DNA of 64,000 nucleotides from the NCBI GenBank assembly GCA_017618055.1, contig JAFZVB010000010.1, positions 31,631 to 95,630 of the forward strand. The letters are read 5' to 3'. Both the position numbers and the translations under genes were made by a program. Positions 2,641 to 55,918 of this stretch are shown one piece after another (position 1 is the first letter of the stretch; each line of letters starts with the position of its first letter). The notes beneath the pieces are model-generated. The model ran no database searches and was not told where the DNA came from. It saw only the letters and a program-made list of their open reading frames with translations. This stretch comes from Clostridia bacterium (GTDB lineage Bacteria > Bacillota > Clostridia > Christensenellales > CAG-917).

Positions 2641-5600
2641 TTATGCTACTGTTAAAGAACCATCAAGGTTTACAGTAATTGTGTAAGTTGTTCCAACACC
2701 ATAGTATCTTGGGAGTATTGTTCCAGCTGGGAATGTAATACCACCAATTGATTTAGATGTTGTTAATGTTTCAGTATCTAAGAGTGTACCGTTCTTATCT
2801 ACTAATGCACCAACTACACCAACCAACTTGTATACTACCTTTCTGCCTTTATCTGGAAGTGCAATACCACCTGTACCAGCAGAGAATGTAACAATTTGTG
2901 CTGTGGACAACTTATTATTGCCGCTTGCATCTTTTGGTGTTGCTGTACCAATCCATACGATTGTTCCCATTACTGTTCCACTTGTTTGCTTGTATGGCAA
3001 TCTATATGTTGCAAGTTTTCCACTTCCAGTTGTTGTTGTAGCAGTATTTTGATTTGTTACCTTGGTTGTAGTTGTTGTGAAGTTAACTGTAATACGTTCT
3101 TGTGAACCAAGGTAGATTGTTGCTACTCTTTCAGCTGCACTACTTAATCCATCAGAGATTGCACCAGTTGATGTATTCAATGTTAATGCAAATGTTGCTG
3201 GCATACTTACTTTAGCATAACCGAATGTAATTGATGTTGTTCCATCGGATGTGTAACCATAATCATTTGTTGGATAACCATCATCACCAATTGTAATGCT
3301 ACTAATCTTAGACTTAGCAAATGTTACTTTGTAGTTCTGTGGCAATGATTGTGAAAGTGGTGCATATGGATCAATTGTGTATGTTGTAGATGCAACACCT
3401 GATGCATTAACATCACTTGTGTATGGATAATTGCCAGTTGTTCTTGGTGAACCTGTGTATACACTTGTTACATTTGTTGCTTGCATCTTCTCTACTGCGA
3501 ATGGCAATCTGAAGATTTGTGTGCTTCCATCTGGACCAGTTAATAATGCATTGATGTATACTACACCGCCCATATAACTTGGTCTGAACTTAGAGTAACT
3601 CCATACTAAGCTATAGTTCTTATTTGCTTCGTAGTTAGTATCATCAGATGAATAGAACTTTTGTGTTCCTTCAGCTGTTGTAACTGTTAATGTTGTTGGC
3701 ATATCTGGAGCAATATAATCATATGGGTTAATGGATGTGATGCTTGATCCTGCTGTTGTTCCTCTCTTCAAGAAGCTTGGTGCAATAGCAATGATTGCTG
3801 CTTGATCGGCTGCTACAAGAGCTGTTGCTGTTCTATTCTTTACATTGATTGTAATTATAGAACGTTGTGTTCCAACTTTATTTCCACCGAAGTTGTATTC
3901 ACCAAATCCGTTTACATATACATATGCTTTATATACACCACCAGCGTAATCTATTGTTACACTCAATGTATTCCAAGCAATCTTTGTATAATCCATTACT
4001 TCGTTATTGAGATATACTTTACCACTATTTGGTAAGTACTTATATGTACCATAGATTTCGTAGTCTGTCATTTCAACATATCTTTCTTCAGTTACTGTTG
4101 TGTGGTCTTGGTTGTATCCAACTACATAGTTTACGAACTTATACTTAGCATCTGCAATGTTAATTGCACCAGTCTTTTCTGTTGTCTCAGCATAAGCATT
4201 GCCGTTTACCTTGTAGTACTTATCTCTTACATTATCATAGTACAATGTTGCCTTTGCATATTGTCCATCTTCATCGAGATAGTAACGAATACCTGCAAAG
4301 TAATCATCGTTTCTTGCATTGAGATAATCAGCATACTTGCCATCACTTAATGTCCATGGATCGAATGTTAATTCTGTTACATATGAACTTCCAACTTTAA
4401 TTCCACCCTTATTGTCTGTATCATTATTGATTGTTCTATCAATGAATGAGAGTGGTGCTGTCATTGTTTCTTTAGATACTCCATTTTGTCCAATAATTGT
4501 TACTTGAGCATTATGGACTCCACCTTCATATGTATACTTAACATCCTTTGTATTCCATTCGAGGTTTACAGTTGTTTGTGTTGTGTACATGAATACGTAT
4601 GCATCATCTGCTTGAGGTGCAATATAGTAATTCTTTGTATCACTATTGTATCTGTAGTAAATAGTATCACCATTATTGTATGTTAATACCTTGTATACAT
4701 AATCACCTTCTGCAACCTTTCCACCTGATACCCAAGCATTGTATTGTGCCATGCTTGTGATTGGTGTTGTGATAGCTCTTACATTTGCATACTTATCATT
4801 GTATGTCGCTGCGGAGATATATTGTCCATCTACCCAGTATGTTCCAGTCTCAGCGAAGTTCTTGTATCCATGTGAGTTGTAATGCTCTGTGTTGTAGACT
4901 GTGTCTGCATATTCAGTTACATATGGATCAAACTCGTAAACATATGAGAAGTCGTCATTGAATACGATATTTGAATTATACTTAGTTACTGTATTAGCAC
5001 TACGTATTACTTCAATCTTGTATGAGTCAATTACGATAGCATCATCTGCTTCTGCTGGATTCTTGTTTAAGATTTCGATTGTCAAATCAGCTCTTTGAAC
5101 TTTCTTTGCATCCGTTGCTGAAGCGATATCACCGTTTGTGGTCTTTCTAATGTAGTAGTTTCTACCTTCACCATTGGAGAATGAAATGTTCATTTGATCT
5201 GGGATTAAATCTAAATCGAAGTCGAATGCATTATCGAAGTAGATTGTCTCTGGCTTGTTGGTTCCCTTTGAGTATACGAATCTCATTAAGTTGCCTGTTG
5301 CATAATCTTCATAAGTCAATGTGAGCTTGGATGAAGACTCTGTTACCTTAATTAATGTGTAATCACTTGGCATTACAAAGAATTCACTTGCGATTGTACG
5401 GTTAACTACGGAGATTGGCATTGTAATGTATTGATATGCGTATACTTCATCAGATACTTTGTATCCAACTAAGAGTTGATATGAAGAATTGATATATCCG
5501 CCCTTCTTGAGTGCGTCTGCAATAATTGTGTCACTTGGTAATGTTACATAATGTACTAATGCATCATTTCCATCTGCGAGTCTGTTCTTCATTGTCATGC

Positions 5601-50997: not shown

Positions 50998-51723
50998 TTA
51001 TTTGATTACTAGATACAACTTCATTTGTTCTTCAATCTTTACAATCTGAACTTTACAAAGACTCTTTCTCTCTAGTTCCTTCTTAAGTCCGCACCAAATA
51101 GCACGTATCATAAGGATATCTCTTGAGTCTAATGCGTTTGCAAGTCCCTCTAACATAAGGAGAAGGTCATCTCTATCTGATTCAGATAATGCTGCTGAAG
51201 ATATTTCGTTTACCATTGTAAGAATGATATCTTCTGTTTGTTCATAGATTCCGTTTGAAGCAAATGCTATTGTTCTTCCATCTTCTGCAAAGTTTTCTTC
51301 CTCTATTCCATTTACAACCAAGTTTGCAAGTGCCATCTTGAAAGGATCCATAACTTCACAAACGAATTTGTTTACACTTTCTTGTTGAGACATGCTTGGA
51401 TAATACTTGCAAGAGAATGTGATGATGTCTTCTGTGCGTTCATCGAATTCCAAGAACAAATTAAAAATAAAGGCAACAAGTTCTTTATCTCCACCAGGAG
51501 CTCTAAAGAAATCTCTTCCGTTTACTGTTATTAATGCCTTTCTTTTTTCTTCGAAATAATTAAAATGTCTTGAAGCAATTGTTAATACTCTCTTGAATTC
51601 ATCATAATAAGCAAGCAACTTTAAAAGAGATTTTACCTTCTTATCTAAGAAGATAATACTATCTCTCTTCATTTCTTCTATTATAGCAACTAATGCTTCT
51701 ATTCCTTCGCCGTTATATTCCAT
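50998..51723 (-). CDS. hypothetical cytoplasmic protein
   Basis: 241-aa ORF with its own terminator and no recognisable motif. Confidence 0.4.
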   Translation of the reverse strand: MEYNGEGIEALVAIIEEMKRDSIIFLDKKVKSLLKLLAYYDEFKRVLTIASRHFNYFEEKRKALITVNGRDFFRAPGGDKELVAFIFNLFLEFDERTEDIITFSCKYYPSMSQQESVNKFVCEVMDPFKMALANLVVNGIEEENFAEDGRTIAFASNGIYEQTEDIILTMVNEISSAALSESDRDDLLLMLEGLANALDSRDILMIRAIWCGLKKELERKSLCKVQIVKIEEQMKLYLVIK

Positions 51724-51798: not shown

Positions 51799-52491
51799 TT
51801 AATATCCTCTCAACTCTACAAATCCTACATTAGGTTTAACTATTTCTAAAAATTCTTCTGCGTTTTTACGTGGGATTTGTGTTAATCCTTCTGCTATGTT
51901 TCCACCTTTGTCATCGAACTTTTGAAGATAGTATCTCTTTGCACCCTTTATTAGTTTTGCAATCTCTTCTATGTTCTTTTTAGAATGTGCTTCAAAGATA
52001 AGGGTTGTTCTAAACTCGTAGTCTACATGTCCTTCCAAAAGATAGTCTATAGACTCTTTAACTTTAGATGTATCAAAGTTCTCTATACCTATTGTAATGT
52101 CATAATCATCGAGAGAATTCTTAACGTCCATAGCAACATAATCTACAAGTTTATCTTCTACCAATTCTTTTAGCATTTTAGGATTGGATCCGTTTGTGTC
52201 TAACTTAATCTTGTAATTATATTTTTCTTTTAAATGTCTTATATAATCTGGCAAATCTTTATTAATTGTTGGTTCTCCTCCACTTATTACAATTGCGTCT
52301 AAGACATTTTTTCTCATGTCTAAGTAATCCTCTATCTCTTGTTGTGAAATAGGTTCTGGGAGTCTTCCAACGACTAAGGCACCATTCTGGCAAAAAGGAC
52401 AGCAAAAATTACAAGCTCCTGTAAATAATATACAGGAGGTGTAACCGTCATAATCTACGAATGATACTTTTTCTATGCCGTAAATTTTCAT
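51799..52491 (-). CDS. nrdG: anaerobic ribonucleoside-triphosphate reductase activating protein (radical SAM)
   Basis: MKIYGIEKVSFVDYDGYTSCILFTGACNFCCPFCQN contains the CxxxCxxC cluster. The ATG overlaps the trxB-like TGA (ATGA at 52491-52488). Confidence 0.8.
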   Translation of the reverse strand: MKIYGIEKVSFVDYDGYTSCILFTGACNFCCPFCQNGALVVGRLPEPISQQEIEDYLDMRKNVLDAIVISGGEPTINKDLPDYIRHLKEKYNYKIKLDTNGSNPKMLKELVEDKLVDYVAMDVKNSLDDYDITIGIENFDTSKVKESIDYLLEGHVDYEFRTTLIFEAHSKKNIEEIAKLIKGAKRYYLQKFDDKGGNIAEGLTQIPRKNAEEFLEIVKPNVGFVELRGY

Positions 52492-53402
52492 AATGTATCT
52501 ACATATGTGGATGCTGCTGTTGCTGCAACTGCACCGTCTCCACAAGCTGTTGTTAATTGGCGAATCTTCTTTGTTCTGCAATCTCCAGCAACGAATAAAC
52601 CTGGAGTCTTTGTGGTACATGTTTCGTCTGCAACAATGTAACCCGCTTTGTCTAGGTCTACAACGTTTTCAAATTTCTTGTTGTCTGGAACTTGTCCTAT
52701 TGCAATAAAAACGCCTTTTGTTTTGAAGTTTATAATAGAACCATCATCTTTGTTCTTGAATACAAGACCTGTTAAAGAACCGTTTTCAGATTCAAATGCT
52801 TGTAATTCACGATTGTGATAGTATGTAATATTTTCTCTTTCTTTTAATGCTTTTACTAAATAGTTTTCTGCAAAGAATTTATCAAAGAGTGTGAATACTG
52901 TAACGCTCTTACATTTATTTGCAAGAAGCAATGCGTATTGAAGTGCTGTGTTTGCATCTCCTATTAAAGCGATATCTTCGCCTGTATAGAAAGCACCATC
53001 ACAAAGTGCACAATAGCTAACACCATTTCCAATGAGTTCTTCTTCACCTGCTACTCCAGTATGTCTATGTTTAACACCTACTGCAAGAATAACTGCCTTG
53101 GATCTTCTTTCGCCATACTCTGTTTTGACTGTAAAGAATCCGTCTTCATCTTTTGTGACCTTCTCTACTTTTTCCAATTCAAAGTCTGCACCAAGGTTTG
53201 TGATTTGTTCAAATAATTTGTCTGAAAAATCACTTCCACTAATTTCTTTAATGGATGGGAAGTTTTCTACTCTTGGGGAGTTAGCTATTTGTCCACCAAC
53301 ATTTTCTTGTTCTAAAACTAAAACGCTCTTTCCGTTTCTTAAAGCATATAATGCTGCTGTCATTCCAGATGCGCCTGCACCAATAACAATAATATCAACC
53401 AT
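52488..53402 (-). CDS. thioredoxin-reductase-like flavoprotein with CxxC but degenerate NADPH-binding motifs
   Basis: IVIGAGASGMTAALYA (FAD GxGxxG) and SYCALCDGAFY (redox CxxC) are present. GGGNSA is replaced by GDANTA and HRRDxFRA by TLFDKFFA. Confidence 0.8.
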   Translation of the reverse strand: MVDIIVIGAGASGMTAALYALRNGKSVLVLEQENVGGQIANSPRVENFPSIKEISGSDFSDKLFEQITNLGADFELEKVEKVTKDEDGFFTVKTEYGERRSKAVILAVGVKHRHTGVAGEEELIGNGVSYCALCDGAFYTGEDIALIGDANTALQYALLLANKCKSVTVFTLFDKFFAENYLVKALKERENITYYHNRELQAFESENGSLTGLVFKNKDDGSIINFKTKGVFIAIGQVPDNKKFENVVDLDKAGYIVADETCTTKTPGLFVAGDCRTKKIRQLTTACGDGAVAATAASTYVDTL

Positions 53403-53476: not shown

Positions 53477-55852
53477 TTATTTTGTTGTTTCAATGAAGCG
53501 TTTGATTTCACTTGCGTTCTCGTATTTGTCATATGTTCCAGCTGCATTTGGTACAAATAATGTTGGAGCTTTTCTTACGCCAAATTCGATTGTTGTTTGT
53601 TTTTCTTCTTCTGCATCGATTACTTTGTAAGCAATTTGTGCTTTATCAAGCATCATCTTGCTCATCTTGCAGTTTGGACATGTCTTTGTTGCGAATAAAA
53701 GGATGTCGTTAGATGTGAATTCAACTTTCTTATCGTCTGCAATTTTTTCTGTGATTGTTGCATTTGCTGGCTTTGTGGATGCTGCTAAATCATATTCTCT
53801 TCTTTCTGCGAATTCAGCAAGTTTTCCTTCGTTCCAGTTTTGGATTGGACGATAGTATCCTGTGATACGGCTGTAAACTTCTGTTGTCTTTCCACACTTT
53901 GGACATGTGTATTGTTCACCTTCGATATATCCGTGTTCTTGGCAGATGGAATATGTTGGACTTAATGTGTAGTATGGTAATCTGTAGTTGTTAGCAATCT
54001 TTCTAACGATGTCTGCAGCTTGTTTCCATGTAGATAATCTTTGTCCTAAGAATGCGTGGAATACTGTACCAGATGTATATAATGTTTGAAGTTCATCTTG
54101 GATGTCTAATGCCTTGAAGATATCTTCTGTGTATCCAACTGGAAGGTGTGAACTATTTGTATAATATGGTTCTTTGCAATCTCCACCAACTGCTGTGATG
54201 ATGTTTGGATACATCTCTTTGTCATGCTTTGCAAGACGATATGCTGTAGATTCTGCTGGTGTTGCTTCTAAGTTATAGAGATCTCCATATAATTCTTGGT
54301 AGTCACTTAAACGATTTCTCATATGGTTAAGAACATCTTTTGTGAAGTTTTGTGCCTTTTCGTTTGTTAAGTCTTCTCTAATCCATGCAGCATTTAAGCA
54401 TGTTTCGTTCATACCAACTAAACCGATTGTTGAGAAGTGGTTGTTGAATGTTCCAAGATAGTGTTTTGTATATGGATATAAGCCATTGTCTAAGAACTTT
54501 GTTACAGCGTCTCTCTTAATCTTTAAGGAACGTGCTGCGATATCCATAATCTTATCTAATCTTTGATAGAATTCTTCTTCTGTCTTGCTTAAGTATGCGA
54601 TTCTTGGCATATTGATTGTTACAACACCGATAGAACCTGTGCTTTCACCACTTCCAAAGAATCCACCACTCTTCTTTCTTAATTCTCTTAAGTCTAATCT
54701 TAAACGGCAGCACATTGATCTTACATCACTTGGTTCCATATCAGAATTTACATAGTTGCTGAAGTATGGTGTACCATATTTTGCTGTCATTGTGAATAAT
54801 AACTTGTTGTTTTCTGTTTCGGACCAGTCAAAGTCTCTTGTGATTGAATATGTTGGGATTGGATATTGGAATCCTCTACCGTTTGCATCACCTTCGATCA
54901 TGATTTCGATGAATGCCTTGTTAACCATCTTCATTTCTTCTACGCAGTCTTTGTACTTGAAATCCATTTCTTTTCCACCAACGATTGCATTGAGTTCTGC
55001 TAAGTCGTTTGGAACTGTCCAGTCTAATGTGATGTTTGTGAATGGTGCTTGTGTACCCCATCTGGATGGTGTGTTTACGCCATAGATGAATGATTGGATA
55101 CATTGTTTAACTTCTTTGTATGTGAGATGATCTGCCTTAACAAAAGGAGCAAGATATGTATCAAATGAAGAGAAAGCTTGTGCTCCTGCCCATTCGTTTT
55201 GCATAATACCGAGGAAGTTAACCATTTGGTTACAGAGTGTGCTTAAGTGTGATGCTGGTGCTGATGTAATCTTTCCTGGAATACCACCGAGACCATCTTT
55301 AATTAATTGCTTTAATGACCAACCTGCACAGTAACCTGTAAGCATTGATAAGTCATGAAGGTGAATATCACAATTTCTGTGTGCATCACCAATTTCATCA
55401 TCATAAATTTCACTTAACCAATAGTTTGCTGTTACAGCACCAGAGTTGGAAAGAATTAAACCACCAACTGAATATGTAACTGTACTATTTTCTTTAACTC
55501 TCCAGTCATCTACCTTCAAATACTTTTCAACTGTCTTCTTGTAGTCAACGATTGTGTCTTTGATGTTACGGATCTTTTCGTGTTGTTTACGATATACGAT
55601 ATATGCCTTTGCAACATCTACAAAACCTGCTTGAATTAATACAACTTCAACTGCGTCTTGGATATCTTCAACTGTTACGATTTCGTCCTTAATTTTGCTG
55701 GAAAATTCTGCTGTAACTCTTAATGCTAACATCTCGAGTATATTTTTGTTATACATTTTGTCTTTTGCATCGAATGCTTTTCTGATGGCTGTTTCGATTT
55801 TTTCAATGTTGAATTCAACTACTGAACCGTCTCTTTTCTTAACTTGATACAT
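53477..55852 (-). CDS. nrdD: anaerobic (class III) ribonucleoside-triphosphate reductase with a C-terminal glutaredoxin/NrdH-like extension
   Basis: N-terminal ATP-cone (VKKRDGSVVEFNIEKI), SMCCRLRL, the Zn site C..H..CPKCG and the glycyl-radical motif RITGYYRP (Gly codon at 53860-53858). About 110 further residues follow, with LLFATKTCPNCKMSK (CPNC at 53669-53680). Confidence 0.9.
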   Translation of the reverse strand: MYQVKKRDGSVVEFNIEKIETAIRKAFDAKDKMYNKNILEMLALRVTAEFSSKIKDEIVTVEDIQDAVEVVLIQAGFVDVAKAYIVYRKQHEKIRNIKDTIVDYKKTVEKYLKVDDWRVKENSTVTYSVGGLILSNSGAVTANYWLSEIYDDEIGDAHRNCDIHLHDLSMLTGYCAGWSLKQLIKDGLGGIPGKITSAPASHLSTLCNQMVNFLGIMQNEWAGAQAFSSFDTYLAPFVKADHLTYKEVKQCIQSFIYGVNTPSRWGTQAPFTNITLDWTVPNDLAELNAIVGGKEMDFKYKDCVEEMKMVNKAFIEIMIEGDANGRGFQYPIPTYSITRDFDWSETENNKLLFTMTAKYGTPYFSNYVNSDMEPSDVRSMCCRLRLDLRELRKKSGGFFGSGESTGSIGVVTINMPRIAYLSKTEEEFYQRLDKIMDIAARSLKIKRDAVTKFLDNGLYPYTKHYLGTFNNHFSTIGLVGMNETCLNAAWIREDLTNEKAQNFTKDVLNHMRNRLSDYQELYGDLYNLEATPAESTAYRLAKHDKEMYPNIITAVGGDCKEPYYTNSSHLPVGYTEDIFKALDIQDELQTLYTSGTVFHAFLGQRLSTWKQAADIVRKIANNYRLPYYTLSPTYSICQEHGYIEGEQYTCPKCGKTTEVYSRITGYYRPIQNWNEGKLAEFAERREYDLAASTKPANATITEKIADDKKVEFTSNDILLFATKTCPNCKMSKMMLDKAQIAYKVIDAEEEKQTTIEFGVRKAPTLFVPNAAGTYDKYENASEIKRFIETTK

Positions 55853-55889: not shown

Positions 55890-55918
55890 ATTATAACACC
55901 CACTATATAGGTAGTCAA
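55890..55918 (-). promoter_or_regulatory. nrdD proximal promoter
   Basis: Minus strand reads TTGACT (55918-55913), 17 nt, TATAAT (55895-55890), about 30 nt before AAGGAG-N8-ATG. Confidence 0.6.
55900..55915. promoter_or_regulatory. NrdR-box-like element A (in the spacer of the nrdD promoter)
   Basis: CCACTATATAGGTAGT. The left half matches the NrdR consensus acaCwAtATaTwGtgt well and the right half is weak (about 11/16). Confidence 0.4.

Follow-up and report, generated by a model that had tools for sequence, protein, structure and literature searches.

How does an anaerobic ribonucleotide reductase (RNR) obtain its electrons when the thioredoxin reductase (TrxR) encoded beside it has lost the residues that bind NADPH? 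The question is raised by a 64,000-nucleotide stretch of DNA, hereafter the window, from a Clostridia bacterium (GTDB Christensenellales, CAG-917; contig JAFZVB010000010.1, positions 31,631 to 95,630), which has a G+C content of 34.5% and belongs to an assembly of 1.58 Mb in 28 contigs. Its minus strand carries, in this order, nrdD, which encodes a class III RNR, a gene for a TrxR-like flavoprotein that we call P0001, and nrdG, which encodes the radical-SAM activase (Table 1). We found that this module joins a class III RNR, probably thiol-dependent, a redoxin fused to it and its own TrxR-derived reductase minus the NADPH site. At a probability that we put at about 0.5, an anaerobic RNR of the thiol-dependent, NrdD2-like kind has in these three genes a reducing system complete in itself, one that would work independently of NAD(P)H and would probably be fed by ferredoxin.

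P0001 has the fold and the catalytic equipment of a TrxR. Both FAD motifs and the redox-active CALC are in place, and an AlphaFold model (pLDDT 96) matched the flavin-oxidising-state TrxRs 4gcm and 7aaw with a TM-score of 0.93. In its length, its two-domain fold, its FAD motifs and the CAxC of its second domain, P0001 resembles the NADPH-dependent low-Mr TrxB of Bacillus cereus (7AAW), Staphylococcus aureus (4GCM) and Escherichia coli (1TDE), and it aligns with TrxB from end to end with no net insertions or deletions. Unlike TrxB, it lacks both NADPH-binding motifs, GxGxxA having become GDANTA and HRRxxxR having become TLFDKFF; it holds a fixed gene position behind a redoxin-fused nrdD; and it scores 291.7 bits against the TrxB equivalog model TIGR01292, under the cut-off of 343.45, which the genome's canonical TrxB exceeds (354.8). 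The second TrxB of the genome (L002:1495-2403), 35% identical to P0001, has GGGDTA and HRRDQLRA intact. NAD(P)H binding by P0001 is unlikely, because an Asp stands in the glycine-rich loop and every basic phosphate ligand has been lost.

An earlier note, made from the letters of this DNA, had described the intact FAD motif and CxxC, the replacement of GGGNxA by GDANTA and of HRR...R by T-L-F...F, and an ATGA coupling of the reductase gene to nrdG. Each of these observations was confirmed: GAGASG (aa 8-13) and CALC (aa 131-134) appear in the translation, which agrees exactly with the stretch quoted in the note; positions 52865-52965 cover both altered motifs; and the stop codon of the P0001 gene overlaps the start codon of nrdG as ATGA, which reads TCAT on the plus strand at 52488-52491.

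We next consider how widely the altered site is shared. When 5.8 billion proteins were searched, P0001 proved to have thousands of relatives, and among the 120 matches listed, on which the motifs were checked, all 120 (60-97% identical) carry GD[AG]N..A together with T[LWM][FM][DNG/E].[FW]F. We also compared 121 family members, position by position, with 54 relatives that have both NADPH motifs, and called a position discriminating when its residue was conserved in at least 90% of the P0001 family and occurred in no more than 10% of the NADPH-type relatives. Only eight positions qualified, and six of them (D149, Y156, T171, L172, F173 and F177) lie in the NADPH motifs or directly beside the first. 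D149 is found in 100% of the 121 members, at a place where 100% of the 54 relatives have Gly; T171, L172, F173 and F177 take the place of His, Arg, Arg and Arg, present in 96-100% of the relatives; and these five residues are conserved in 93-100% of the family. Since all 120 listed homologues carry the substitutions and six of the eight discriminating positions stand at or beside the NADPH motifs, the changes are, by the measure of sequence conservation, selected and not decay, and they go far beyond what chance would give.

The gene neighborhood was surveyed in 40 related genomes; these are kin and not independent, so we give plain counts and no statistics. A redoxin-fused NrdD (73-100% identity, with the match running to aa ~789) with a reductase gene directly downstream is present in 20 of the 40, and 19 of these 20 reductases are of the NADPH-less type (one has a frameshift and another is cut by contig ends). 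Another 11 genomes have an NrdD that stops at aa ~689 (48-51% identical), and in these only a canonical TrxB is present. The order of nrdD and reductase gene also recurs on unrelated metagenome contigs. We had considered nrdG as the conserved partner of the reductase, but its strand and distance vary between genomes, where it lies on the opposite strand or elsewhere, and this rules it out. The conserved partner of the reductase gene is thus the upstream nrdD, which in all assembled relatives stands immediately ahead of the gene and encodes the C-terminal CPNC redoxin domain; the ATGA overlap with nrdG is confined to this genus. The earlier note had proposed a TrxR-like enzyme dedicated to the anaerobic RNR by way of a redoxin. 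This proposal is supported in part, in altered form: the module is with nrdD and not with nrdG, the redoxin in the path is a CPNC domain fused to NrdD itself, and the ferredoxin donor is proposed by analogy.

In one relative assembled as a single contig, nrdD and the adjoining reductase gene are both broken into several frames (G019:C1:658027-661326). These may be pseudogenes or assembly errors, the genome being 81% complete with 5% contamination.

The sequence of NrdD points to the kind of reductant that it would use. In its thiyl loop an extra Cys precedes the thiyl-radical Cys, giving MCCR as against SCCR in Thermotoga maritima and MGCR in the formate-type enzyme of Prevotella copri; SMCCRLRLD occurs in both kinds of NrdD, fused and unfused, in the related genomes. 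This extra Cys has been described as a mark that separates thiol-dependent from formate-dependent enzymes (PMC4493059). NrdD further has a Zn-ribbon-like pair of CxxC motifs and a glycyl-radical motif. Its E529 (NLEATPAE) lines up with a Glu in T. maritima NIEQVPAE, where P. copri has Leu (SIL), and may be the defining active-site Glu of NrdD2. With the NrdD2 enzymes of Neisseria bacilliformis and T. maritima (Wei et al. 2014, as summarised in PMC4493059), this NrdD has in common the extra Cys, the glycyl-radical motif and the CxxC pair, besides a Glu that aligns; the extra Cys fits a thiol-dependent, NrdD2-like class III RNR.

The protein extends ~120 aa beyond the glycyl-radical motif into a thioredoxin-fold domain that carries CPNC and the cis-Pro motif APT. 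In an alignment of the redoxin domains, C14, P15, N16, C17, A51, P52 and T53 are invariant, and the closest solved relatives of the domain are archaeal glutaredoxin-like PDO units, MJ0307-type thioredoxins and NrdH. Turnover would draw on the redoxin instead of formate, as this fused domain and the adjoining reductase gene suggest. The NrdD2 systems studied so far use a free thioredoxin and a general NADPH-dependent TrxR, whereas here the redoxin is fused and the reductase has a gene of its own in the module. In many fused NrdDs (L014, L016, L017, L018, L026, L027) the linker that leads from the glycyl-radical domain to the CPNC domain holds additional Cys pairs (CC, CGC, CCC, CEC); the linker of the window's own NrdD has none.

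We asked whether P0001 and the last 80 aa of NrdD could be co-folded as a complex. The pair scored 0.42, with 0.00 for the best control, and so passed a mark that 58 of 80 solved complexes pass, as do 2 of 110 mismatched pairs; at scores of 0.60 or lower, it is passed by just 7 of these solved complexes and by both of these mismatches. Three runs had at least 70% of their contacts in common, with a partner pLDDT of at least 85. The predicted complex lends weak support to binding between P0001 and the NrdD domain, and the pass may reflect likeness alone, because a TrxR-Trx complex has already been solved.

Where did such an enzyme come from? Three reductases encoded behind a CPNC-fused NrdD keep both GGGxxA and HRR, namely those of G015 (46% identical to P0001), P0128 (50%) and P0136 (51%). 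In trees built after removal of the motif columns, the NADPH-less enzymes group together (SH-aLRT 89-97), inside a clade with 96-97 support that also holds the HRR-type nrdD-linked enzymes. On the simplest reading of these trees, an NADPH-dependent reductase was dedicated to the fused NrdD first, and the NADPH site disappeared later, in one lineage; the loss would fall within the nrdD-linked lineage because the three sisters in the same gene position retain the motifs. The best solved relatives of P0001 are likewise NADPH-type, with 7aaw at E 3.8e-61 and ~45-50% identity by phmmer (aa 2-303 against 10-310). Near the clade lies a sub-family (P0131, P0133, P0145, P0154, P0157 and others) that keeps GGGNSA and has QNLPxLT for HRRxxxR; it resembles Thermosipho africanus 7JYP, does not adjoin nrdD, and may also differ in its cofactor preference.

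This ancestry bears on the strongest alternative, in which a pyridine nucleotide such as NADH is still used at the remodelled site and P0001 is an RNR-dedicated TrxR with an altered cofactor preference. Some HRR-less TrxRs, for instance that of Thermoplasma acidophilum, do use NADH; the nearest relatives of P0001 are NADPH-type, the fold is unchanged, and its sisters encoded behind a fused NrdD retain HRR. We nevertheless consider it unlikely. The glycine-rich loop is broken by the invariant Gly to Asp change at aa 149, and the four basic ligands have given way to Thr, Leu, Phe and Phe, not to the acidic residue usual for NADH specificity.

The earlier note had tentatively likened P0001 to the ferredoxin-linked, pyridine-nucleotide-independent TrxRs described in clostridia (FFTRs, ferredoxin-dependent flavin thioredoxin reductases). 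The two resemble each other in being TrxR-like flavoenzymes of anaerobic Firmicutes with ferredoxin and pyruvate:ferredoxin oxidoreductase (PFOR), and in having an intact CxxC and neither NADPH motif. They differ in sequence and in detail. P0001 matches the solved FFTRs 6gna, 6gnc and 6gnd at E 1e-24 to 1e-28 (6gna 1.7e-25, 6gnc 6.9e-28), as against 1.5e-80 for a genuine FFTR of the same order with 6gna. Eight FFTRs of this order form their own group with support 100, separate from the P0001 clade and at ~28% identity to P0001. Deletions (query aa 176-184, 216-221 and 250-251) that neither P0001 nor the NADPH-type enzymes share make the FFTRs ~20 aa shorter; the residues that replace the lost motifs differ, as does the C-terminal FAD motif; and FFTR genes pair with a free trxA, the P0001 gene with nrdD. 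In this genome (G000) no FFTR was found. We therefore rejected FFTR membership on the E-values, the insertions and deletions and the unrelated residues at the lost motifs. By the clustering that the note itself had proposed as a test, P0001 groups with NADPH-type relatives, the nearest of them the nrdD-linked GGGxxA/HRR enzymes, and the family assignment falls. The idea of NAD(P)H independence survives it, for the NADPH signatures are lost, and the loss is conserved and appears selected.

Could the P0001 family and the FFTRs nonetheless owe their missing NADPH site to one shared event? NADPH motifs are absent from both groups, and approximately unbiased (AU) tests do not reject a tree that joins them (p 0.53 and p 0.73); in the second of these, the tree constrained to join them even gained 19.6 log-likelihood units over the quick free search. 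The attachment point of the FFTRs shifts between analyses and never falls with support beside the P0001 family. With this, the weak E-values, the absent deletions and the unrelated residues at the lost motifs, a common loss seems rather improbable, somewhat more so than continued use of a pyridine nucleotide. We also considered membership in the DTR/DDOR-type enzymes (Gloeobacter 5J60 and 5N0J), which matched at E 4e-33 and 4e-15, far weaker than the NADPH-type TrxRs, and rejected it. P0001 ends where TrxB ends; the DTR/DDOR-type enzymes presumably have a C-terminal extension that covers the flavin.

If P0001 does not take electrons from NAD(P)H, what would feed it? The genome encodes PFOR and other 2-oxoacid:ferredoxin oxidoreductases, a 57-aa clostridial-type 2x[4Fe-4S] ferredoxin and one free TrxA. 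In a survey of one Pfam family, Flavodoxin_1, no stand-alone flavodoxin was found in the genome or its genus, the genome's sole match being the C-terminal domain of a flavodiiron protein. Of the possible donors, ferredoxin is the most plausible, both by elimination and because the FFTRs offer an analogy: PFOR and ferredoxin are encoded, and a stand-alone flavodoxin was not found. A flavodoxin or another redox protein in its place appears less probable again than a loss shared with the FFTRs. Flavodoxin serves NrdG in E. coli, and stand-alone matches do occur in G010, G011 and G022, but these are the only such genomes among the reductase carriers surveyed, and most carriers, like this genome and its genus, gave no stand-alone match to that Pfam family.

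Put together, these observations suggest the following path. The active-site disulfide of NrdD would be re-reduced after each turnover by the enzyme's own fused CPNC thioredoxin-fold domain. That domain would in turn be re-reduced by the FAD- and CALC-bearing flavoprotein encoded downstream, in the manner of a low-Mr thioredoxin reductase. With the second Gly of its loop turned to Asp, and with Thr-Leu-Phe...Phe for His-Arg-Arg...Arg, the flavoprotein is predicted to be unable to bind NAD(P)H, and its FAD would therefore be reduced by another donor. The likeliest such donor would be a low-potential ferredoxin charged by PFOR, and deoxynucleotide (dNTP) synthesis would thereby be tied to the fermentative ferredoxin pool. 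The least probable alternative places P0001 outside the RNR electron path altogether, as a regulatory or protective flavoprotein that might, for instance, sense redox state or oxygen on behalf of the oxygen-sensitive glycyl-radical enzyme: it has no identified donor and its former NADPH pocket is filled with conserved aromatics, yet its CxxC, its FAD motifs and its whole TrxR scaffold are strongly conserved, it is strictly paired with a fused redoxin substrate domain, and it descends from NADPH-type reductases in the same gene position.

Several points weigh against a ferredoxin-fed reductase that serves the RNR alone. That NAD(P)H is no longer bound is read from sequence only. One genome, G038 (L022, G038:C55), has a CPNC-fused NrdD without an adjacent reductase gene; this genome is higher in GC and carries two canonical NADPH-type TrxBs elsewhere (L028, L029). 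In the window's own genome, the canonical TrxB and the free TrxA could reduce the fused NrdD domain too. Free TrxA genes are present in G018 and G021 (98% and 97% complete), but a canonical TrxB was found in neither, and the only TrxR-like gene found is the nrdD-linked one that lacks the NADPH site; in these two, the enzyme may act as a general thioredoxin reductase and not as a dedicated one. No third gene that could encode the donor is common to the window and the loci L004, L007, L009 and L038. Finally, the divergent clade members P0161 and P0225 do not adjoin nrdD.

P0161 lies among RecD2, ClpP, PhoH and homing-endonuclease genes, which look phage-like, and P0225 is in a different context. 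On contigs of 84 kb and 147 kb (L040, L041), the gene at 4001-4915 encodes a divergent clade member with GDGNTA and TLFDKFFC; its neighbors encode a RecD2-like helicase, ClpP, PhoH and a NUMOD3 homing endonuclease, which gives the contigs the look of a large phage, and no nrdD was found within 4 kb of it. The matches to phage records were to unannotated faecal virome contigs.

The layout of the window completes the picture of the module. Upstream of nrdD is a promoter-like site, and between nrdD and the P0001 gene lies a hairpin with a U run, followed by a ribosome-binding site (GAGGUGA). The hairpin was rejected as a terminator, its energy being no better than that of shuffled sequences and a consensus scan having made no call; it may act as a partial terminator, lowering the expression of P0001 and nrdG relative to nrdD. 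Directly after nrdG, an open reading frame of 241 aa (50998-51723, minus strand) has no Pfam match. It may share the transcript of the module, because a clean terminator-like hairpin (50972-50949) comes after it.

Table 1. Features of the nrdD module and their positions in the window.
Feature	Position	Strand	Remarks
Promoter-like site upstream of nrdD	55890..55918	minus	TTGACT-17-TATAAT with extended TG; consensus match only, 11/12 positions
nrdD, class III ribonucleotide reductase	53477..55852	minus	791 aa; Pfam PF13597 6.7e-188, PF03477, PF00462 27.3 bits
nrdD domains		minus	Pfam: ATP-cone aa 3-92; NRDD core aa 121-687; C-terminal redoxin domain
NrdD thiyl-loop motif MCCR	54704..54715	minus	aa 380-383; from alignment to 4coi (T. 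maritima) and 8p23 (P. copri)
NrdD glycyl-radical motif RITGYYRP	53846..53869	minus	aa 662-669
NrdD C-terminal thioredoxin-fold domain	53480..53719	minus	aa 712-791; Pfam Glutaredoxin and Thioredoxin matches
NrdD CPNC	53669-53680	minus	aa 725-728
NrdD cis-Pro motif APT	53561-53569	minus	in the C-terminal domain
Hairpin between nrdD and the P0001 gene	53412..53448	minus	AAGCCGC...GCGGCUU, then U run; fold -15.4 kcal/mol, z -0.67
P0001, TrxR-like flavoprotein	52488..53402	minus	304 aa; NADPH-binding residues gone; Pfam Pyr_redox_2 1.7e-38
P0001 FAD motif GAGASG		minus	aa 8-13
P0001 redox-active CALC	53001..53012	minus	aa 131-134; C131 and C134 invariant in a 97-sequence alignment
P0001 GDANTA in place of GGGxxA	52944..52961	minus	aa 148-153
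P0001 TLFDKFFA in place of HRRxxxR	52869..52892	minus	aa 171-178; T171, L172, F173, F177 for H, R, R, R
P0001 C-terminal GD motif AGDCR		minus	aa 272-276
nrdG, radical-SAM activase	51799..52491	minus	230 aa; Pfam PF04055, PF13353
nrdG cluster motif CxxxCxxC	52390-52413	minus	

How does this module compare with other redoxin-linked RNRs? Work by Wei and colleagues in 2015, cited in PMC9176816, reportedly described, for the NrdD3 of Methanosarcina barkeri, a path from ferredoxin through a disulfide reductase and an NrdH-like redoxin to a class III RNR, with the components encoded together. There the reductase belongs to the iron-sulfur enzymes of plant FTR type, the redoxin is separate and the host is an archaeon; here the reductase is a flavoprotein and the redoxin is fused. 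Fusions of glutaredoxin to RNR are on record, as in the Grx::NrdB of Facklamia ignava and a single listed grx::nrdD, from Lachnospiraceae TWA4 (PMC6187632). These share with our module a redoxin domain that serves, or here would serve, as reductant on the RNR polypeptide itself, but the study concerned an N-terminal Grx on NrdB and glutathione, and neither a dedicated reductase gene nor an NADPH-less TrxR was described in it (PMC6187632). Motif-less TrxBs of Clostridia have been treated as probable FFTRs (PMC10880999), and our literature search found no paper that links a motif-less TrxB to nrdD.

More broadly, though we hold this somewhat less firmly than the reducing system itself, the P0001 family may constitute a second class of pyridine-nucleotide-independent TrxRs. 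It would have arisen from an RNR-dedicated NADPH-dependent TrxR by the remodelling of six residues in the pocket, and in many uncultured Firmicutes of the gut it would wire anaerobic dNTP synthesis directly to the ferredoxin pool. In G018 and G021 it would perhaps be the sole TrxR, and it could possibly represent an evolutionary bridge from the NADPH-type TrxRs to the clostridial FFTRs. A warning for annotation follows: not every motif-less TrxB of Clostridia should be called an FFTR, as is current practice (PMC10880999).

Experiments have identified the reductant of only a handful of class III RNRs, which use formate, thioredoxin with an NADPH-dependent TrxR or, in one archaeal case, a ferredoxin system. 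Here a large family of gut and rumen Firmicutes has a complete, genetically fixed reducing module whose last component appears to have given up NADPH. The module makes the electron source for anaerobic DNA-precursor synthesis a directly testable question, with the HRR-type sister enzymes in the same gene position as a natural control. This gut bacterium probably makes its DNA precursors with electrons from a source other than NADPH, most plausibly ferredoxin.

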